Positions 2,741-40,823 of a stretch of DNA of 52,506 nucleotides are shown in pieces (positions within the stretch are counted from its first letter, which is position 1; each line of letters opens with the position of its first letter). Made by a program: the position numbers and the translations under genes. The stretch lies in UHGV virus genome UHGV-0041832; one strand, 5' to 3'. Under the pieces are notes generated by a model that saw nothing but the letters and a program-made list of their open reading frames with translations, ran no database searches and was not told where the DNA came from. The stretch comes from a virus.

Positions 2741-3301
2741 TCAAAATAATTGCAACTGAAAGCGATCGTTGACTTCTTTTATTAACTGCTTAACCTGTTT
2801 CTTATCCCGCTTACGCTGCGTTAACAGGCGACTACCAACCTTACCGACTGTTTCGCTATCAGCGGCAAAACCATTTACTGCATTCATTACTTGCTCACCG
2901 CTTGCGCCATCGCAAATAAGTCCTTTAACGTGCGCCGCCATATCATCCGGTGTTTTTGGTTTTTCTCCGTAATAACCATTCCGGCGAATAGATGGTAATA
3001 CTTCCTCGAATACCCAATCCTGGAATCGTTCGGCAGATTCAAGTTTTGAGTGCATAATCAAGCGGAAAACATCAGGTTCATGAATCAAGGTCACACCTTG
3101 CGGTATAGGTTCAAATCCCAAATGTCGCATTTCGCGACATTTGATTTTTATCAATGAATTACAATGCTTTTTAACAGCATCCTGCGGCGTAGTGTACCCA
3201 AGCGCACGCGCAACATCCATTGCAACAAAAGCTGGCTTATCTGCATAAATAACCGTTTGCACTTGTTTATCATCAAACGAGAATTTAACTACTTTATTCA
3301 T
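2741..3301 (-). CDS. Bro-N domain antirepressor-like protein
   Basis: 186 aa; N-terminal FxFDDKQVxTVI...PxFVAMDVARALGY...LIHEPDVFRLIMHSKLESAERFQDWVFEEVLPSIRRNGYY is a Bro-N signature. Confidence 0.78.
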   Translation of the reverse strand: MNKVVKFSFDDKQVQTVIYADKPAFVAMDVARALGYTTPQDAVKKHCNSLIKIKCREMRHLGFEPIPQGVTLIHEPDVFRLIMHSKLESAERFQDWVFEEVLPSIRRNGYYGEKPKTPDDMAAHVKGLICDGASGEQVMNAVNGFAADSETVGKVGSRLLTQRKRDKKQVKQLIKEVNDRFQLQLF

Positions 3302-3312
3302 GCTGCACCGCC

Positions 3313-3510
3313 TTATCGCACACCATTACTATTTTTCCATTGCGCCCGCGCATACATGATCGCCCATAAAGAAATCAGCCTTGAACTAGACATAAAATCG
3401 TTTTTAAGTTTTTTCATATCAATGACTACAGGGCGATCAGGATCATCGCCGCGCATGTATTCCGCGATCGTGCTCATGTCTTCAACAGTTAAATCAAGTT
3501 CCTTGTCCAT
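3313..3510 (-). CDS. Hypothetical small protein
   Basis: 65 aa ORF in leftward operon. Confidence 0.4.
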   Translation of the reverse strand: MDKELDLTVEDMSTIAEYMRGDDPDRPVVIDMKKLKNDFMSSSRLISLWAIMYARAQWKNSNGVR

Positions 3511-3518
3511 AACTCACC

Positions 3519-3725
3519 TCACACGATACGCATTGTGTTTCTTAATTCACCGCGCAGCGCCTGTAACGCTTCACGAATTGGAACAAAAACCCGTTTAAAT
3601 TTTACGTGTCTGTACTTGCGCATAAGTGGAGGTGTATAAACCATCGCGCCGCGAGAATCGCACGGGAAACGGAAATGTGATTCATCAATGAATGTTTCAA
3701 CTGAATAAAAGATTACCCGTCTCAT
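3519..3725 (-). CDS. Hypothetical small protein
   Basis: 68 aa ORF, overlaps upstream gene stop (coupled). Confidence 0.4.
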   Translation of the reverse strand: MRRVIFYSVETFIDESHFRFPCDSRGAMVYTPPLMRKYRHVKFKRVFVPIREALQALRGELRNTMRIV

Positions 3726-4315
3726 AATTCTAACCCCGTTTCGCTGTTAAGTTTTTCGATTTCAAATACTGGTTTATCAGGCAGCAGGCCGTTATTTTTC
3801 CGGTATTCGTTCAGGCGGCTATCAAAATCAAACGCGAGATCATTAGCGTGACCGAATCGCCCAGGTTTAAACAGTGAGTAAAAATTAAGACCGTGTTTAT
3901 TGGTGTCTATGCAAAGTGTTTCATCCAGCACCATTAAACGCAGCGTGCGCGACAGGTAATTCCATGGGATACCCGTTTCAGCGCTAATATCTCTCATACG
4001 CTTTTTAACGCTGTAGTCACTAAATAACGCTGCCACACGATCACGACGTTGAGCGTACAAGTATTTAATTCGATACCCAAGCAAGCGGCGGCGCGGTCCG
4101 AAATATGTATACACACGCTCAACAATACCAGTATCGATCAGGTGTTTAATTGTCTCAGGCAAACATCCTGCTTCGTCATATTCCGCTGATAATCCTGTTT
4201 TCTGGCGTAACTGGTGCATTGTGTCGATGCCATCCAGTTCAAGGATATTGATAATTTTTGTTTCAAGTTCAACGCTCATTGTTTTTAGCCTCGATTTAAG
4301 CGCGAAAACAGCCAC
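3722..4315 (-). CDS. Hypothetical protein
   Basis: 197 aa ORF immediately downstream of DnaB in the leftward operon; true start may be the internal MSVELETK. Confidence 0.5.
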   Translation of the reverse strand: MAVFALKSRLKTMSVELETKIINILELDGIDTMHQLRQKTGLSAEYDEAGCLPETIKHLIDTGIVERVYTYFGPRRRLLGYRIKYLYAQRRDRVAALFSDYSVKKRMRDISAETGIPWNYLSRTLRLMVLDETLCIDTNKHGLNFYSLFKPGRFGHANDLAFDFDSRLNEYRKNNGLLPDKPVFEIEKLNSETGLEL

Positions 4316-4358
4316 CAGAAAGCTGTCAACTTTCCGGTAAGCCGTTTGCTCAAGTTAA

Positions 4359-5780
4359 TTAAAAGGATGCGTTATTCTGGTTATTTCGTGGTGAGAATCG
4401 GCTTGCCGCAGGACGTTGTTGCATTGACTGGATGCAAGCTGACGCCGCGCGGGCCTGGTCGCATGGTAAGATGTTGCCGTTATCGTCAAACCGCTGGTAA
4501 ACAGTCCCCGTTTTCCCGTGACGGTTTTTTGAAACAATGATCTCCATGTATTCGCGGGCAACAGATTGTTCGTTGTAGTATCCGTCTCGGTACACCATGA
4601 TGATACGGTCGGCGTCTTGCTCAAGGTTCCCGGAATCGCGCAGATCAGAATTGTTCGGGCGCTTGTTCGGTCGTTCCTCAACGCGGCGGGATAATTGCGC
4701 AAGTGCCGCCACTGGTACGCGCAATTCCTTCGCCATCATCTTCAATGACCATGACAATTGCCCTACAGCGAGATCGTGACGTTCTGCCTTAGCCAGCTTC
4801 ATTAACCCGATGTAGTCAATCATTACCATACCCAGGTTGGGATGATTCTGCTTCATTCGTTCAGTTGTGGCGCGTATTTCCTCGACAGTTAACTGTGATG
4901 CATCAACAATCCACACATCGAGATCAGCAAGTGCGCTCATTCCCTGGGTAACGTGCGCCCATCCTTCTTCATCCAGTTTTACCGGATTACGTAGGCAATC
5001 CGTTGACAAGTTCCCTGCGCCAGCGATAGCGCGTTCAGTCATCTGATCGAGCGACATTTCAAGCGTGAACAGCAAAACGCCTACCCGCTGACCTTCTCCG
5101 CCAGGGTATTGGCGTTCAGCCGCCGCGCGGGCAATTGCCAACGCCAACGCCGATTTACCAGACCCTGGGCGTCCGGCGATAAGCACCAGATCAGTAGCGT
5201 TAATGCCGCCTAACATTTCGTCGAGTGGGTCAATCCCTGTTTTGATGTTGTCAGAGTTCACGCCACACTCCATGCGTTTACTTAGCACTTCCGTGTATTC
5301 CTGGACAGCATCGCGCAACAGCACCGGGATAATCTGATCTTTTATTACCTTTAATTTTGAATACCGGGAATCAAAATCTTTCATCGTCTCTTTGACGACC
5401 TCAAGAGTCCCCGTTTCCAGTTTGTAGCGCATATCGTCGATGAGTTCCAACATCTGCCGACGCTGGTGCTCTTCACGTAGTAGCTGTGCGTATCCCTTCA
5501 GGTTGGCAGCAGAAGGGCACGATCGCGCCGTTTGCATTAGCGGTACAAAGTTTTCATTACCAATCTCATCGCCAACCAGTAACGCGTCGATGAGATTTCT
5601 GTTTCTGGCTTGCGCCCGGATAACTTCAAACGCACGTTTATAAAGCGGGATCGTGAACACTTCAGGATCAAGTGTGGCGAGAACATCTTGCGCGTTAGGA
5701 GTAAGGCCACCTAACAGTAGCCCGCCGATAACTGACGCTTCACGTTCCTGCTGTAGTGAGTTTATTTGCTCAGTTACCAT
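4359..5780 (-). CDS. dnaB: Replicative DNA helicase, DnaB family
   Basis: 473 aa; DnaB N-terminal domain (EREASVIGGLLLGG) and RecA-like core with Walker A GRPGSGKSALALAIA, plus downstream helicase motifs. Confidence 0.92.
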   Translation of the reverse strand: MVTEQINSLQQEREASVIGGLLLGGLTPNAQDVLATLDPEVFTIPLYKRAFEVIRAQARNRNLIDALLVGDEIGNENFVPLMQTARSCPSAANLKGYAQLLREEHQRRQMLELIDDMRYKLETGTLEVVKETMKDFDSRYSKLKVIKDQIIPVLLRDAVQEYTEVLSKRMECGVNSDNIKTGIDPLDEMLGGINATDLVLIAGRPGSGKSALALAIARAAAERQYPGGEGQRVGVLLFTLEMSLDQMTERAIAGAGNLSTDCLRNPVKLDEEGWAHVTQGMSALADLDVWIVDASQLTVEEIRATTERMKQNHPNLGMVMIDYIGLMKLAKAERHDLAVGQLSWSLKMMAKELRVPVAALAQLSRRVEERPNKRPNNSDLRDSGNLEQDADRIIMVYRDGYYNEQSVAREYMEIIVSKNRHGKTGTVYQRFDDNGNILPCDQARAASACIQSMQQRPAASRFSPRNNQNNASF

Positions 5781-5798
5781 TATGTTATTGCCTTCGGT

Positions 5799-6917
5799 TT
5801 ACAAAATGGAATATTCAGGGTAATAAACAAAGCGCCCAATTTCCCCATGATCCGGGCTGTAAATAATCACCGCTGCCAGACGCCGCGACCGCCAGCCGCC
5901 ATTAGTTGAATATGCGTCTTTGCCAGCTAATGTGCCGTGGTGCTCAACTATTCCAAGTGATGTTTCAACAACTGATTGATGGTGCAGATGTCCAGTGTGA
6001 GCGTAAACAGCCACAGACCTCCCGAAATCCTCCCGCCAGTCAGATACGCAAGCCGACAATAAATTTTCCGGCTTTTTGATAGTGTGCCCGTGGTGGTAAG
6101 CAAGGAATGTTTTGCCGTACTGTGTGTGGTGGACGATAGCAGGGGACACATCAACAGTTACGCGCGGTTCATCTTCGTAAAAAGCCGCCAGCGCCGCACG
6201 TAGCCAAATCATGCCAGACTGATCGTGATTGCCTGATAGTACCTGGATTTCAATATCCTTATGATTTAACAACATCTTTCCTACCGCCCGACGTACCGCT
6301 CGGATCGCTACATAGACAAGTTTTGCATAGCGTGAATCGCAATCCAGTACGTGATTGCTTGATGGCGTAACTGGCAACAGCCCGTCAGTGTGAAGAACAT
6401 CCCCACCGAGAAGCAAAACAGCTTTTTCAGACATCGGCGCAGCGCCCACCGCGTAGTCAAAGAATTCATTCAACACGCGTTCAGCGATCCCAGTGTCGTA
6501 GCTCTCGCCGCATTCAGCTTTATGAGCAAGCGCCCCGATATGCAGATCAAATACCGGATAAAGGGCCAGGCTTTTTTGAAAATCAATTTCAGGCACTGGC
6601 ACGGCCTCCGCGCGTGGTATTTCTTCCGTGAATGCGTCGCGGGCAGCTTCCATTAGCCTTTCCATTTCATCACGGTCACGGGCAGTTTTAATCCAGCGCA
6701 TGACCGTATTACCAGCCTTATCGACAAGAACAGATTCACCAGTAACGCCAAAACCAGGCGCGCGACGCGTTGATATTAAACCGCGTTTCGCCAGTTTTGC
6801 GCCTAGCCGCTCGACGTTGCGTTTTGACATGCCATATTTTTCAGCGATCTGCTTGTACGTTAAACCGTTGTTATATTCAGCGATCAATTGCTCATCGCTG
6901 ATTTTTCTTTGCGACAT
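5799..6917 (-). CDS. HTH domain fused to calcineurin-like metallophosphoesterase
   Basis: 372 aa; N-terminal HTH (LTYKQIAEKYGMSKRNVERL); all canonical phosphoesterase motifs visible in order: DLH, GDVLHTD, GNHD, YHHGH, GHLHH. Confidence 0.7.
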   Translation of the reverse strand: MSQRKISDEQLIAEYNNGLTYKQIAEKYGMSKRNVERLGAKLAKRGLISTRRAPGFGVTGESVLVDKAGNTVMRWIKTARDRDEMERLMEAARDAFTEEIPRAEAVPVPEIDFQKSLALYPVFDLHIGALAHKAECGESYDTGIAERVLNEFFDYAVGAAPMSEKAVLLLGGDVLHTDGLLPVTPSSNHVLDCDSRYAKLVYVAIRAVRRAVGKMLLNHKDIEIQVLSGNHDQSGMIWLRAALAAFYEDEPRVTVDVSPAIVHHTQYGKTFLAYHHGHTIKKPENLLSACVSDWREDFGRSVAVYAHTGHLHHQSVVETSLGIVEHHGTLAGKDAYSTNGGWRSRRLAAVIIYSPDHGEIGRFVYYPEYSIL

Positions 6918-6950
6918 AATGTTATTTCCTCATGTTTACATTTTGTATAT

Positions 6951-7874
6951 TTATTGACAGCAAACAATCTCTTTATATGTTTCTTCTACCATGTCGAATA
7001 CTTCCGGCCTGTAATAAAAAAATTCAGTGCTACCATCAAACTTAACAGGGAAGTTTATTTTATAGTCACTGAAAGCATCGTGCATTTTGCTTTCTATTTC
7101 CTGCATAATCTCAGTAGGCCCATTCCATGTTTTAACTACCTGTAAATCAGTCAGCCTTACACCTGCCTTACGAGCACTTTTAAATACTCTGTTCCTCCTT
7201 TCGTTCTCTTTTACGCTTACACCAATTTTCATTTGTGTAGGCACTTCAAGATCATCAACCATGATGTAAAGTTTTCCGTTGTAGTGTGATAAAAACCCGT
7301 ATTTAGCGCATTTCGGGCAACCGCGCCCGCTCTTAATGTCTCTAGGTTTAGCCGACCACTCATGATCACAAACCTTGCAGCGGCATAATACTTTTGTACT
7401 GTTATTAACTATTTCAACCAGCACTTCAATATCAGGATTAACCTTAGCAATAGCCGATATTTGTTCTTCATGCGATATTTTTTTGCCTTGCGCTCGTTTT
7501 AGCACCGCACATTTCTGGCAACCGCTCCCGATCTTAAGGCTTTTAGGTGTAGAATACCACTCATGATCACAAACCTTGCAGCGGCATAATACTTTTATTT
7601 TGTCGCCGGTAATTTCCCCAAGCACTTCAATATCAGGATTAACCTTAGCAATAGCCGATATTTGTTCTTCATGCGATAACTTCATATTCCCAGCGCATTT
7701 CTGGCAACCACGTCCATATTTAATATTGCTAGGTGTAGCCGACCATTCATGGTTACAAACTTTGCAGCGACATAATACTTTTGTACTGTTATTAACAATT
7801 TCCCCTAACACTTCAACATCAGGATTAACTTTCGCGATAGCTGCAACTTGTTCTTCATGTGTTAACTTGCGCAT
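6951..7874 (-). CDS. Three tandem CxxC..CxxC zinc-ribbon repeats fused to a T5orf172 (GIY-YIG-like) C-terminal domain
   Basis: 307 aa; three ~64-aa repeats (HEEQxxAIAKVNPDxEVLGEI...KVLCRCKVCxHEW...GxGCxKC); C-terminal GKLYIMVDD...KIGVS...FDGSTEFF resembles T5orf172. Confidence 0.6.
   Translation of the reverse strand: MRKLTHEEQVAAIAKVNPDVEVLGEIVNNSTKVLCRCKVCNHEWSATPSNIKYGRGCQKCAGNMKLSHEEQISAIAKVNPDIEVLGEITGDKIKVLCRCKVCDHEWYSTPKSLKIGSGCQKCAVLKRAQGKKISHEEQISAIAKVNPDIEVLVEIVNNSTKVLCRCKVCDHEWSAKPRDIKSGRGCPKCAKYGFLSHYNGKLYIMVDDLEVPTQMKIGVSVKENERRNRVFKSARKAGVRLTDLQVVKTWNGPTEIMQEIESKMHDAFSDYKINFPVKFDGSTEFFYYRPEVFDMVEETYKEIVCCQ
7310..7874. repeat. Three direct ~195-bp tandem repeats inside the zinc-ribbon gene
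   Basis: Near-identical DNA segments (e.g. agcacttcaatatcaggattaaccttagcaatagccgatatttgttcttcatgcgata at 7425-7482 and 7624-7681); also evident as duplicated alt-frame ORFs 7375..7566 and 7576..7890. Confidence 0.85.
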
Positions 7875-8013
7875 CGCTCCAACTCCTTAAGAACATCATG
7901 CGCGCTACAACGCAAAAACCCACCGCGACACCCGTTTGCACAGGTTGCAGTGTCTTATTGCGTCAGAGACGCCATCAGGTGGCTAATTTTCGATTTACAG
8001 AATGGTAGGTAGG

Positions 8014-8115
8014 TTATGGATTGATTAGCAGGTACAGACCGCCGAACAAGGCGACGTTAACAGCGATTGCCGCAGCGATGGCAAAAGCCAGGGCGAAAAC
8101 GTGTTTACCGTCCAT
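8014..8115 (-). CDS. Possible 33-aa hydrophobic mini-protein
   Basis: Hand-translated MDGKHVFALAFAIAAAIAVNVALFGGLYLLINP with GAGAGGA-like SD upstream; below ORF-track size cutoff. Confidence 0.25.
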   Translation of the reverse strand: MDGKHVFALAFAIAAAIAVNVALFGGLYLLINP

Positions 8116-8249
8116 TTTAAAATCCTCTCTGTAACGCTCTATAACGAGCTAATCGCAAAAAGGTAAGCAAAGTGTAGCACCACATGCGATTTAGCTCGCT
8201 GGTGAGGTTGTTTTGTGGGTAATTTTGGATTTTTGCGGATCGTGATTGG

Positions 8250-9302
8250 TCAAAGAACGCCAGCGCGCGTATCACGTAGCGTTTTTGGTTTAAGCAGGAA
8301 ATCAAGTGTCGCGGTGAAGCCATCGCCGAAGTAAAAATCTGAAGCCGTGTTTTTGAACGTTTCGAAGTAGGCGACAAAGCCGTTAATGCTTTTGTCTTTC
8401 AGGTAGTCAGTGAACGCATAGATCTTGCGTTCAAGATCCCGATCCAGTTCGGCAGGTGGTAACAGGCCGTCAAACGTGCTGTTAAATGCTTCCACCACGT
8501 CGGCAGCGTTTACAGTGGCTGACAGTTTGCGCCATTGTTCAGCATCAGTCAGATACCCATCAAATTTAGTTACCCGGCAAATGTTGATAGGCTTAGGTAC
8601 TCCACCACGGCTACGCCATTGGGTTAAAGCCCACTCAATTACTAACGTGATCTCATTCTCCGTATACGCTTTACGTGTTTTTGTTTCTGTCAGTAGTTCT
8701 ACGAATGGCTTAGCATCACGACATTTGCATCCTGCCTTGTCGTTGTAGAAGGCAAGGCAACGCAATGCCGCTTCGTTTACGCCATCCTGATTGACCATTT
8801 TTTGTTCATTTTCGACAATACACGAAGTGTATATATCTTTTTCTCTTTCTTTTTCTACTTCTAATTCTAATTCATGACCCTTTCCTGACCCGGTCATGAC
8901 CCTATCATGACCTTTTTGTGTTGGATTGATTAACTTTTCTAATTTTAATTGCTCCTTCGCTGTGTTTATGGCGGCCCTGTAAGCGCTTTTAGAAGTCATT
9001 GATTGGTCCAGCCTTTTCAATAACTTTAAACAAGTTATGTGGCCTTGAGAACATTCAAACAAACCAATTTCGATGAAGTATTTCATCATTTCTTCTATAC
9101 GTTTTTCAGTAGATCCGACGTTTCGCGCAATGATTCTCGCGTCATGTCGTAGGTCAAAATTCAGATTGTGCTGATCTACGTCATAAGTTATTAGTTCGAG
9201 GCAATACCAATAAAGCCCGTACCCTTCCAGGCCATAATCTAACAAAACGTTTTGAAGTTTTTCATCGCGGTTCGCATCGCTGTCATGCTTAAACCACTTC
9301 AT
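8250..9302 (-). CDS. Replication initiation / replisome organizer-like protein
   Basis: 350 aa; N-terminal MKWFKHDSDANRDEKL...YGLEGYGLYWYCLELI matches phage replisome-organizer N-terminal domain pattern; sits upstream of DnaB in the PR-type operon. Confidence 0.72.
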   Translation of the reverse strand: MKWFKHDSDANRDEKLQNVLLDYGLEGYGLYWYCLELITYDVDQHNLNFDLRHDARIIARNVGSTEKRIEEMMKYFIEIGLFECSQGHITCLKLLKRLDQSMTSKSAYRAAINTAKEQLKLEKLINPTQKGHDRVMTGSGKGHELELEVEKEREKDIYTSCIVENEQKMVNQDGVNEAALRCLAFYNDKAGCKCRDAKPFVELLTETKTRKAYTENEITLVIEWALTQWRSRGGVPKPINICRVTKFDGYLTDAEQWRKLSATVNAADVVEAFNSTFDGLLPPAELDRDLERKIYAFTDYLKDKSINGFVAYFETFKNTASDFYFGDGFTATLDFLLKPKTLRDTRAGVL

Positions 9303-9305
9303 AGA

Positions 9306-9641
9306 TCATCCCTCCGGCAACATCACTACATAGACATCACTGAATGCATCAAGACGACAAACAAATCCTTTATCCATTAACGCGGCGAAGGCATCATGTA
9401 CCGTATGAACAGGAAGTTCACACATTGCGGCTACTTCTTTGCGTGATGCATCATGTACCCGTCCTTTGTTATCTGCCTTTTCAGCCAGAGCCATTAAGAC
9501 AAGTTTTTGAATCGGGCTATTAAGTTTTACGTTCCATGCTTTACTAATCATGTTCATACTCATCGCATTTTCTCCTATGGTTAGAGTGAACGCGCGGGCG
9601 GGCATCCCATTAGCATTAGATAGCAGTGACTGACCGCTCAA
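9306..9641 (-). CDS. HTH DNA-binding protein (HTH_36-like), first gene of leftward early operon
   Basis: KLVLMALAEKADNKGRV...SRKEVAAMCELPVHTVHDAFAALMDKGFV winged-helix pattern. The track start is a TTG; a downstream ATG (MPARAF or MSMNMISKAW) is more likely. No separate Cro-sized ORF was found. Confidence 0.55.
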   Translation of the reverse strand: MSGQSLLSNANGMPARAFTLTIGENAMSMNMISKAWNVKLNSPIQKLVLMALAEKADNKGRVHDASRKEVAAMCELPVHTVHDAFAALMDKGFVCRLDAFSDVYVVMLPEG

Positions 9642-9868
9642 CAGATCCCGCCGTTGCGTGATATTTGTTTTTCGCTTCGCAGCGACACCGGATTTTTAAA
9701 GAGCATAAGGTAAGTGCCTTTTTGTGCCTTCAGTTATCTTTTTCCTTGCGTCTTTGCAAGTATGGCCTTACCTTGTCTGCAAGTTTACAAAATGGAATTT
9801 TAAGATCAAGGCTTAAAATACACGTTTTGTGACTTGCATCAAACTTTTTGAGGTTATAGGGTAGCGAC
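9642..9868. promoter_or_regulatory. Immunity region with divergent early promoters (PR-like leftward, PRM-like rightward)
   Basis: 227-bp gap between divergent HTH gene and cI; candidate -35/-10 pairs on both strands; TTGCAT-N15-TATAGG ending ~7 nt before the cI ATG suggests a near-leaderless cI transcript; contains one copy of the dispersed motif (9784-9796). Confidence 0.5.
9681..9713 (-). promoter_or_regulatory. Candidate nutR-like site (boxA + boxB hairpin) on minus strand
   Basis: Minus-strand GCTCTTTAAAAAT (boxA consensus CGCTCTTTAA) followed 6 nt later by UCGCU-GCGA-AGCGA hairpin with GNRA loop. Confidence 0.4.
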
Positions 9869-10516
9869 ATGAAAACAAAATGGTATGACTTAGCAAAGCA
9901 GCTCATGCGGGCGCAGGGCATGAGCCAGGATTCACTCGCGGATCGTATGGGGATAACTAAAGGCGGCCTGTCACACTGGCTGAACGGTCGCCGAGAGCCA
10001 AATCTTGAAGATATTGCGCGGATTATGCGCGAGCTTGGTCGTCGGCAGTTTACTGTTACACATGATGGCATGGTCATTGATGATTCTGTTTCTAATACAC
10101 TTCAGGCCGTGCCGCCGCGTGATTTAGGTAGTTACCCGGTTATTGACTGGAAGGACACAGTAAACAATATGGATGACGCAAGGCGTTCAGCATTACGACA
10201 CGTTACGACTAGCGTTATTTGTTCAGATGACAGTTACTGGCTGGTTGCCAAAGGTGAATCAATGAACGCGCCGCAGGGGTTGAGCATCCCGGCGGGGACG
10301 ATGATACTTGTGGACCCGCACGCGCCAGCTATTGACGGCAAACTGGTTATAGCCCAGCTTGAGGAAGGGCAGATACCGACGTTTAAACAGTTGATTATTG
10401 ATGGAGGTCAAAGGCTTTTACGTTCGCTCAATCCGCTGTATCCGCCAATCCCTATGAATCCAGAATCAAAAATTATAGGCGTGGTGGTTGATGCGAAGAT
10501 CGTAAACCTGCCATAA
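9869..10516 (+). CDS. cI: CI-type prophage repressor (XRE HTH + LexA-like S24 peptidase domain)
   Basis: 215 aa; N-terminal HTH (SQDSLADRMGITKGGLSHWLNGRREP); C-terminal S24 fold with GESMNAP (Ser) and downstream Lys context. Confidence 0.9.
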   Translation: MKTKWYDLAKQLMRAQGMSQDSLADRMGITKGGLSHWLNGRREPNLEDIARIMRELGRRQFTVTHDGMVIDDSVSNTLQAVPPRDLGSYPVIDWKDTVNNMDDARRSALRHVTTSVICSDDSYWLVAKGESMNAPQGLSIPAGTMILVDPHAPAIDGKLVIAQLEEGQIPTFKQLIIDGGQRLLRSLNPLYPPIPMNPESKIIGVVVDAKIVNLP

Positions 10517-10545: not shown

Positions 10546-10753
10546 NNNNNNNNNNNNNNNNNNNNNNNNNNNNNNNNNNNNNNNNNNNNNNNNNNNNNNN
10601 NNNNNNNNNNNNNNNNNNNNNNNNNNNNNNNNNNNNNNNNNNNNNNNNNNNCTTTTCTTTGCCTGGAAAACACCAAAACGTAAACAGAAAACGTTATTTA
10701 TTATTTAAATATCAATGCCATATAAAATATTTTAAAAAAGTATACAAAATGGA

Positions 10754-36600: not shown

Positions 36601-36756
36601 TTTCGTATTTCCTGTAACTCCCCGGCGCGATGCCGGGGNNNNNNNNNNNNNNNNNNNNNNNNNNNNNNNNNNNNNNNNNNNNNNNNNNNNNNNNNNNNNN
36701 NNNNNNNNNNNNNNNNNNNNNNNNNNGGGGATTTTTTTGTATGTGGAGCAAACAAA

Positions 36757-40163: not shown

Positions 40164-40823
40164 TTAATTCCAGTTGCAAGCGTTTTTCACTTTGTCGATG
40201 TGGTTATAAAGACCATCAATGTTAAACACTGCTTTCTCAATGTCGCCAGCTTCCGGCACTACTTCAATGATGAATTGTTTTTCGTTAACCAGTTTTTTAA
40301 TCATTGGGATGGCTTTTTTGCCGTCCCATAATCCAAGAGCTTTATAATTAGTTGACCGCCACCACTCAGTAGCTACAGCTTTGTGAACGCCGATCCGGTA
40401 GTTAATATAAGTAGTGTCCCCGGCGTCAGTTACATGGTGTGACCATGCTACGAACATTTTTGTTTTATTACCCTGGCAAGCGATTGTTAATACCGGTTTA
40501 TTCTTATCCTGTGCCTTCAGTGTCGGGAAAGCATCAAGACTTCCGCTGAATTGTTCTGCTTTCACAAAAAGGAATACGTTTTTTGCGTCCTGCATATCAT
40601 CTTTTCTTTCAACTACAAGCCACTGTTTACCAGCATTTTCTTTTTCTAACTGTGCATCGTATGCGGCTTGTTTTGCTTGTTGTTCTGCAAGCCATTTAGC
40701 ATTTTTCTCTGCTAATGCTTGTTGCTCTTGATTGGTCACTATAGGCGCTTTTTCATTATCCTCATTGCAACCAACCAGACCCAATACCGCCGCAATCATT
40801 GCCACTTTTGCTAACCGTTTCAT
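40164..40823 (-). CDS. Lipoprotein with N-terminal coiled coil (moron)
   Basis: MKRLAKVAMIAAVLGLVGC lipobox; 219 aa; opposite strand, upstream of the BamE-like lipoprotein gene. Confidence 0.6.
   Translation of the reverse strand: MKRLAKVAMIAAVLGLVGCNEDNEKAPIVTNQEQQALAEKNAKWLAEQQAKQAAYDAQLEKENAGKQWLVVERKDDMQDAKNVFLFVKAEQFSGSLDAFPTLKAQDKNKPVLTIACQGNKTKMFVAWSHHVTDAGDTTYINYRIGVHKAVATEWWRSTNYKALGLWDGKKAIPMIKKLVNEKQFIIEVVPEAGDIEKAVFNIDGLYNHIDKVKNACNWN

Follow-up and report, generated by a model that had tools for sequence, protein, structure and literature searches.

The gene on the minus strand at positions 6951 to 7874 of the virus genome UHGV-0041832 probably encodes a homing-type endonuclease of the T5orf172 family; it is free-standing and belongs to what we take to be the early replication operon of a temperate phage of E. 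coli. Its product has three zinc-finger units followed by a C-terminal domain with a predicted GIY-YIG-type nuclease fold. We analyzed the whole stretch of 52,506 nucleotides (nt), hereafter the window, which, judged by its sequence, is a prophage of E. coli that has mEp021 and mEp013 among its phage relatives; positions 4000 to 10000 are 100% identical to E. coli strain MS 21-1. Our reading draws on the domain identities, the fold, the conservation of catalytic-type residues, the presence or absence of the gene in relatives, its apparent transfer between phage backbones, and natural alleles that differ in unit number and whose junctions were mapped. The RefSeq record for the 307-amino-acid (aa) protein, WP_001229015.1, is named "zinc-ribbon domain-containing protein". 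The gene is composed as follows.

6951-7874, minus strand: coding sequence, 307 aa, ATG start; three CapR/DUF4379 zinc-finger units and a C-terminal T5orf172 (GIY-YIG-fold) domain
7680-7865, minus strand: repeat unit R1, aa 4-65 (62 aa); putative zinc ligands C37, C40, C57 and C60
7479-7679, minus strand: repeat unit R2, aa 66-132 (67 aa); putative zinc ligands C99, C102, C119 and C122
7290-7478, minus strand: repeat unit R3, aa 133-195 (63 aa); putative zinc ligands C166, C169, C186 and C189
6954-7289, minus strand: T5orf172/MUG113 domain, aa 196-307 (112 aa), with the GIY-YIG fold order

The C-terminal domain and its predicted nuclease fold

A sequence-only reading of this DNA had proposed a T5orf172-like C-terminus with a GIY-YIG-like fold. 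This was borne out by Pfam searches with the isolated domain and with homologues, and by structural searches with Foldseek. When the whole protein was searched against Pfam, the MUG113 and T5orf172 models scored 20.2 and 18.1 (cut-offs 22.3 and 20, respectively). With the isolated domain the scores rose to 22.6 for MUG113, which passes its cut-off, and to 19.9 for T5orf172. The T5orf172 model matched 14 of 15 homologous domains (best E-value 3.3e-7), and the whole protein matched the PHROG family phrog_681, annotated "endonuclease", at 7.7e-57. The structural model of the isolated domain has a predicted local distance difference test score (pLDDT) of 93.8 and a predicted template-modelling score (pTM) of 0.84. 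Foldseek retrieved 154 matches at E ≤ 1e-3 from the viral structure library BFVD, many of them named as T5orf172, CapR-homology or treble-clef proteins, and a match to ICP1 ORF88, the protein known as Odn, was found at E = 1.5e-5.

The elements of the domain follow the order strand b1 (aa 199-206, with Y203), strand b2 (214-220, with K216-I-G218), helix a1 (223-236, with R226), strand b3 (245-253) and helix a2 (254-267, with E261 and H265), and then the motif G281-x-x-E284-F-F. Residues Y203, K216, G218, R226, E261, H265 and E284 are invariant among 46 homologues, as are the remaining residues of the K216-I-G218 and G281-x-x-E284-F-F motifs. An arginine in the first helix and a glutamate in the helix after b3 agree with the GIY-YIG arrangement, and the predicted structure as a whole agrees with the fold of active GIY-YIG nucleases. 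R226 and E261 may thus be the equivalents of R27 and E75 of I-TevI.

The canonical GIY-YIG family would share with this protein the fold alone. Pfam PF01541, the canonical model, gave no match at E ≤ 0.1, and the corresponding motifs read "LYI" and "KIG". No PDB sequence matched a profile of the C-terminal alignment at E ≤ 10, and hhalign aligned only 5 columns of the C-terminal profile to the I-TevI catalytic domain, with a probability of 0.06. Many homologues carry the NCBI name "GIY-YIG nuclease family protein". Two relatives (P0081 and P0088) have another C-terminal end that lacks the KF[DSN]G..EFF motif.

Three zinc-finger units of the CapR/DUF4379 type

The protein was expected to have three consecutive units with paired cysteine motifs, and it does: the units are 62, 67 and 63 aa long, R2 having a linker that is 5 aa longer, and each carries the pattern CxCxxC...CxxC. 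Support from zinc-binding families in profile searches was also obtained. Pfam matched three stretches of the protein to DUF4379 ("probable treble clef zinc finger", 2.3e-21) and three to the CapR homology domain (6.6e-15), and solved DUF4379 chains (mt-SAF33 and 6yxx_E2) were retrieved by both sequence and fold. The other Pfam matches of the whole protein, all below their cut-offs (zf-PHD-like, U83, HypA, UPF0181 and L51_S25_CI-B8), arise from the cysteine knuckles or the repeats. NCBIfam returned nothing other than sub-threshold noise, such as HypA and YoaH; the HypA noise explains database names of the kind "Zn finger protein HypA/HybF".

To describe the conservation of the finger we used 417 unique units from the homologues. 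The near-invariant cysteines are at unit positions 34, 37, 54 and 57 and form two CxxC knuckles, while the first cysteine of the "CxC" is less conserved. These four cysteines belong to a near-invariant scaffold (H3, I10, N14, C34, C37, W41, P45, K49, G53, C54 and C57). Positions 24-28, 38, 42-44, 46-47, 50 and 52 are hypervariable, with up to 3.5 bits, which is consistent with their being specificity-determining residues. In an AlphaFold2 model built with 46 three-unit homologues, the mean pLDDT is 85.9 and the units and the C-terminal domain each reach about 90; the linkers are weaker and the pTM of the whole-protein model is low, as expected for beads on a string.

At the DNA level, the sequence-only reading described near-identical tandem repeats of about 195 bp with 58-nt exact blocks. 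The three units and the 58-nt block are there, but the period is not uniform (successive units start 186 and 201 bp apart) and the units are just 72-84% identical (pairwise 72-77% over the full units and 75-84% in a 171-nt core). Tandem Repeats Finder reported a period of 201 with merely 1.8 copies at 85%, and another repeat search found three copies of 173 nt at 82-84%. Three exact blocks are shared between units.

7621-7678 (R2) and 7420-7477 (R3): 58-nt exact block
7556-7596 (R2) and 7355-7395 (R3): 41-nt exact block
7771-7796 and 7384-7409: 26-nt exact block

The identity is mosaic: R3 begins like R2 and its middle part resembles R1, as gene conversion or unequal exchange between units would produce. 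No second copy of the gene or of the finger units was found elsewhere in the window.

Natural alleles with different numbers of units

The sequence-only reading had foreseen a potential for copy-number change by recombination. We see such changes directly in natural alleles with 1, 2, 3 and 4 units. The alleles below fall within the same cluster of at least 90% identity as the gene of the window and are described relative to it.

L014 / P0121: 240 aa, 2 units; clean 201-bp deletion and one single-nucleotide polymorphism (SNP) near the 3' end; junction inside the 58-nt block; 11 contigs
L019 / P0122: 178 aa, 1 unit; 387-bp deletion that fuses R1 to R3; junction TTGAAGTG; 4 contigs
P0134: 374 aa, 4 units; extra 67-aa hybrid R3/R2 unit; 1 contig

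Apart from the one SNP, the deletion alleles are base-identical to the window. For the four-unit allele, where the proteins alone were compared, the junction maps to the segment KVLCRCKVCDHEW encoded by the 41-nt block. The version in the same genomic slot has a single unit in mEp013 and 6 in mEp021. Among the 120 best homologues, 15 proteins have 2 units, 57 have 3, 36 have 4, 7 have 5 and 5 have 6. A unit resembles the other units of its gene as closely as it does its positional counterparts in other alleles, and R5 and R6 of mEp021 are 94% identical. This pattern points to a continuing birth, death and conversion of units.

A cassette that is present, absent or replaced

Comparison with the empty site of a relative (L003) delimits a cassette.

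6956-7900, minus strand: cassette, 945 bp

The cassette has its own ribosome-binding site (AAGGAG at 7883-7888, 8 nt before the ATG), and the stop codon of the gene overlaps the flank. The GC content of the cassette is 0.40 (window, 0.46; the two genes downstream, 0.50) and lies at the 3rd percentile of windows of 924 bp. Empty sites were found at L003, L027, L028, L032, L049, L052 and L063. The slot lies directly upstream of a gene for a 372-aa protein, and we surveyed its occupants in 53 IMG/VR contigs that encode this protein.

Cassette gene family, with 1, 2 or 3 units: 16 loci
DUF559 (Vsr-like) nuclease gene: 5 loci
Bro-N or Rha and KilAC genes: 15 loci
Empty: 6 loci

All the close relatives of the cassette that we examined sit directly upstream of the 372-aa gene, even where the initiator is of the HTH_36 type. 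The isolated phages with a DNA match to the gene are mEp021 and mEp013 only, and their homologues are in the same slot. Farther homologues (57-63% identity) sit at unrelated sites. For instance, one lies between nrdD fragments, which adjoin an HNH_3 gene, and a radical-SAM gene (PF04055) that is nrdG-like by position; no integrase was found in the 8 kb examined on this contig. Another is in a different prophage, close to the integrase end.

Transfer between backbones is suggested by an island of identity shared with one relative, L018.

6805-7903: identity island, 1 mismatch in 1,099 bp (99.9%)

The flanks are less similar (upstream intergenic region 89.7%, initiator gene 93.2% and 372-aa gene 93.4% identical), and the first upstream mismatch, at 7904, is 3 bp from the cassette edge that was set independently by the empty sites. 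Conversely, backbones that are 84-100% identical bear cassette alleles that are just 72-78% identical. Decayed alleles, frameshifted or truncated, also occur (P0040 and P0132). Judged from these comparisons, the pattern of invasion, exchange and decay is compatible with what is expected of homing endonuclease genes (HEGs), with the nuclease as a putative driver. The L018 island, the low GC content and the unrelated loci would fit homing, and they would also fit ordinary recombination at a hot spot.

Several other slot contents and insertions were noted in relatives. The DUF559 occupant (L002 3590-4645; also in L016, L017, L040, L046 and L062) encodes 351-378 aa; its C-terminus matches DUF559 (Vsr-like nuclease) and the PADLOC model mREase_II (1.3e-8), and its N-terminal ~280 aa contain no recognised domain and no zinc fingers. 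In L005 (1842-2345, which is mEp021 gene 10) an HNH_3 and AP2 endonuclease gene lies between the 372-aa homologue and DnaB. This gene is absent from the window and marks a second slot for nuclease genes in the replication module. An extra AT-rich segment of ~120-145 bp lies between the slot and the 372-aa gene in L004 (~3451-3571) and L002 (~3425-3590). It is flanked by an imperfect direct repeat of ~25 bp (GGTTYACWGAATGAGTATTTATT / GGTTTACATTTTGTATATTCATT), is present neither in the window nor in the empty site, and may be the remnant of another insertion.

How the element would work

The gene is co-oriented with the replication genes, leftward of a CI/LexA-like repressor gene, and this same-strand series would be an early operon, expressed upon infection or induction. 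Once made, the three zinc-finger units of the CapR-homology type, arranged as beads on a string, would bind a DNA site sequence-specifically, and the C-terminal GIY-YIG-fold domain would then cut nearby. If a related phage genome without the cassette were present in the same cell, repair of the break would copy the cassette and a short flank into it. Unequal or intramolecular recombination of the DNA repeats would add or remove whole finger units, which should change target recognition.

A further possibility, which we put forward tentatively and think somewhat doubtful, is that the finger array is a naturally reprogrammable recognition device. Each unit of ~62 aa would recognise a separate DNA sub-site by means of its hypervariable positions, and recombination between repeats would add, delete or hybridise units. 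If so, the natural alleles with 1, 2, 3, 4 and 6 units would cut different targets, and the series would be a native counterpart of engineered zinc-finger nucleases. The general idea of a reprogrammable finger array was already put forward by Barth et al. 2023 (PMC10448857); the novelty would be a demonstrated code from unit to sub-site, and the allelic series would make such a modular code directly testable.

Alternative explanations

Some observations weigh against a homing endonuclease gene. This sequence scores marginally under the curated Pfam cut-off for T5orf172, and the proposed catalytic equivalence to I-TevI is one of order in the predicted fold rather than of superposed structures. 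Cleavage activity, a target site and homing are themselves inferred. The slot also takes non-nuclease cargo (the Bro-N/Rha and KilAC genes) and so may be a general recombination hot spot, in which case presence and absence are insufficient to establish nuclease-driven mobility. Moreover, the close relatives (66-100% identity) are all in one slot, which would also suit a lineage-specific accessory gene under selection. Finally, for any single contig the two-unit allele could be a mis-join by a de Bruijn or short-read assembler across the 58-nt block. We rejected this as a general explanation because the allele is found in 11 contigs, because the one- and four-unit alleles have other junctions, and because mEp013 and mEp021 have 1 and 6 units; the junction of the one-unit allele has too little homology for a mis-join.

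The triple repeat itself could in principle be an artefact of assembly or annotation. Short-read assemblers may mis-join at repeats, and the window has three runs of N (10546-10651, 36639-36726 and 51398-51445, of 106, 88 and 48 bases). All these runs of masked or unresolved sequence lie outside the gene, however, and the units differ at 16-28% of their positions, so an assembly can resolve them. Three complete E. coli chromosomes carry the 924-bp gene at 100%, 99.8% and 99.8% identity, and 176 contigs are on record with exactly the same protein. An assembly artefact had been named as grounds for abandoning the repeat, and the repeat was upheld by both the chromosomes and the contigs; we give the artefact practically no credence.

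The T5orf172 domain was originally annotated as DNA-binding, and the protein might not cut at all: it might be a CapR-like repressor or a replication accessory factor, with the C-terminus as a DNA-binding or structural module. The position of the gene between the initiator and the helicase-associated genes would suit such a role, and the CapR protein of PLE is a finger domain domesticated as a repressor (PMC8096241). CapR, however, has no nuclease domain, whereas the present protein has an intact and conserved 112-aa domain of nuclease fold, which agrees with active GIY-YIG nucleases and in which the Tyr/Arg/Glu-type residues are invariant among the 46 homologues. Furthermore, the replication module functions without the gene in the phages with empty sites. 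We therefore regard a non-cutting protein as very improbable.

Less easily dismissed, though still unlikely in our view, is a domesticated weapon similar to Odn, which would cut competing heteroimmune phages, satellites or superinfecting relatives, for instance at their replication regions, and thus serve exclusion rather than homing. T5orf172 nucleases have been domesticated in this way in ICP1, as Odn (PMC8263062), and domestication is described as probable in the coliphages Inny, Muut and Mt1B1_P17 in a second study (PMC10448857). The gene is co-directional with the replication series and adjoins the initiator gene, its intact reading frame is widespread (the identical protein in 176 contigs), and hypervariable positions on the finger surface would be expected in an arms race. 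Against this, the Pfam and PHROG scans found no RepA_N, initiator-like or other borrowed DNA-binding domain that would indicate a particular victim, and the sole match to the anti-phage defence models of PADLOC was PDC-S57 (E = 0.011, 13.4 bits). Sister phages are often without the gene or have a replacement or a decayed copy, which suits a selfish element that can be dispensed with better than a weapon under maintenance. The weapon also overlaps mechanistically with homing, because cleavage by HEGs brings about marker exclusion as a by-product.

Comparison with known systems

The architecture and repeat dynamics seen here are already published for T5orf172 HEGs (PMC10448857, PMC8096241). Barth, Dunham & Seed 2023 described T5orf172 HEGs with repeated CapR/DUF723/DUF4379 fingers: 87% of 229 bear fingers of the CapR, DUF723 or DUF4379 type, often in tandem, and the tandem-finger proteins were termed "class V repeat proteins" (PMC10448857). 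In that work the repeats are present at the nucleotide level and recombine, as in a 228-bp in-frame deletion in ICP1 gp174; phage Helene has six repeats; and the genes lie near essential genes, including those of the replisome, often beside other HEG classes (PMC10448857). The CapR homology domain is named after CapR of PLE, a sequence-specific DNA-binding repressor that is related to the N-termini of the ICP1 T5orf172 homing endonucleases; its four cysteines are needed for binding, which cysteine-to-serine mutants lose (PMC8096241). For ICP1 Odn, DNA cleavage by the T5orf172 domain has been proven, and the substitution E180A abolishes it (PMC8263062). A report from 2025 describes intron-borne HEGs in which the same finger array is joined to a Vsr/EDxHD-like nuclease (PMC12350094).

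Our protein resembles the T5orf172 HEGs (ICP1 gp174, gp165 and gp121, Helene, and T5 Orf141) in its array of ~60-aa four-cysteine units ahead of a C-terminal T5orf172 domain (PMC8096241, PMC10448857). As in those systems, the gene is free-standing and adjoins essential or replisome genes, with other nuclease classes at the same loci; units are lost in frame (228 bp in ICP1 gp174; 201 and 387 bp here), and proteins have up to 6 units. It differs in its host, a temperate phage or prophage of E. coli instead of a lytic vibriophage, and in showing at one locus a full series of 1, 2, 3 and 4 units (6 in mEp021) with base-exact junctions. The link to the ICP1 proteins is through Pfam models and fold. 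With the origin-directed Odn (Gp88) our protein shares the T5orf172 domain, in which the Arg and Glu are retained (PMC8263062), but it has zinc-finger repeats and, in the Pfam and PHROG scans, no RepA_N-type domain. With PLE CapR it shares the finger unit (CapR homology domain, 6.6e-15, in three stretches), whereas CapR is a single ~15-kDa domain that acts as a repressor without a nuclease. The intron HEGs of phage group I/II introns likewise have 3-5 CapR/DUF4379/DUF723-like units before a nuclease of ~100 aa (PMC12350094), but they are intron-encoded and Vsr/EDxHD-like, whereas this gene is free-standing and GIY-YIG-like. I-TevI and the T4 Seg proteins also have a modular beads-on-a-string DNA-binding region, including a small zinc finger, and Seg shares the free-standing or intron-less homing logic. 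The present protein differs from both in reading "KIG" for "YIG" and in having tandem fingers of a single type in place of NUMOD and helix-turn-helix (HTH) modules.

Because the architecture and the evolutionary behaviour are in the literature, the locus adds an example and not a concept. Its value is that of a clean natural experiment at one slot of a cultivable group of temperate E. coli phages (mEp013, mEp021 and many prophages), which offers otherwise identical alleles with 1, 2, 3 and 4 units, empty sites, and another nuclease family (DUF559). The system is suited to measuring whether T5orf172 genes home, the extent of co-conversion, and how finger number and hypervariable residues determine target specificity. 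The database names "Zinc-ribbon domain-containing protein" and "HypA/HybF" should be corrected to putative T5orf172-family homing endonuclease.

Gene neighbourhood

On the minus strand, the order of genes is the Lin1244_N initiator, the nuclease-type gene, the 372-aa gene (N-terminal HTH, PHROG 704) and DnaB.

8250-9302, minus strand: replication initiator, Lin1244_N-type, upstream
5799-6917, minus strand: 372-aa gene, immediately downstream; N-terminal HTH; PHROG 704 "DNA repair exonuclease" (1.1e-138)
4359-5780, minus strand: DnaB-like replicative helicase, after the 372-aa gene

The sequence-only reading placed the nuclease-type gene between the initiator and the helicase. The initiator is indeed its neighbour; the helicase is not, because the 372-aa gene intervenes. 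The position was further thought unusual for lambdoid phages, a view that we do not share: replisome-adjacent slots are typical for T5orf172 genes, and the nearest isolated phages, mEp021 and mEp013, are mEpimmI phages, a group that has been called non-lambdoid in a paper that does not take up this gene (PMC11893012). A scan of 6700-8400 for promoters and terminators found sites no more commonly than in shuffled sequences, with no sign of a private promoter or terminator, and an Rfam scan of 6500-8500 gave one chance-level match to a long non-coding RNA and nothing else.

The 372-aa gene is named "metallophosphoesterase" in some RefSeq records, and no Pfam family matched it above its cut-off. 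It stands directly before DnaB, the position expected for a helicase loader. Within the initiator gene, 8872-8912 holds three overlapping 19-nt copies with an 11-bp period, of the type TCATGACCC and partly palindromic, which adjoin an AT-rich stretch (8800-9100, GC ~0.36). By their sequence these look like candidate iterons of an origin that, as in lambda O, would lie within the initiator gene. Upstream of the cassette, the intergenic region of 375 bp contains a small open reading frame (ORF) (8014-8115, minus strand) for a strongly hydrophobic peptide of 33 aa (MDGKHVFALAFAIAAAIAVNVALFGGLYLLINP). A 33-aa gene at the equivalent position is annotated in mEp013 (mEp013_13) and called in L007-L011, and the mEp013 DNA at the position of this ORF encodes a near-identical peptide. 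Farther along the same-strand series is a stand-alone Bro-N domain gene (2741-3301, minus strand; 1.7e-21). Among the plus-strand late ORFs, upstream of a 1656-aa ORF (46378-51348), a 219-aa ORF on the minus strand (40164-40823) has a match above the cut-off (1.2e-15) to VasI, a Pfam family of type VI secretion systems, and is possibly a moron.

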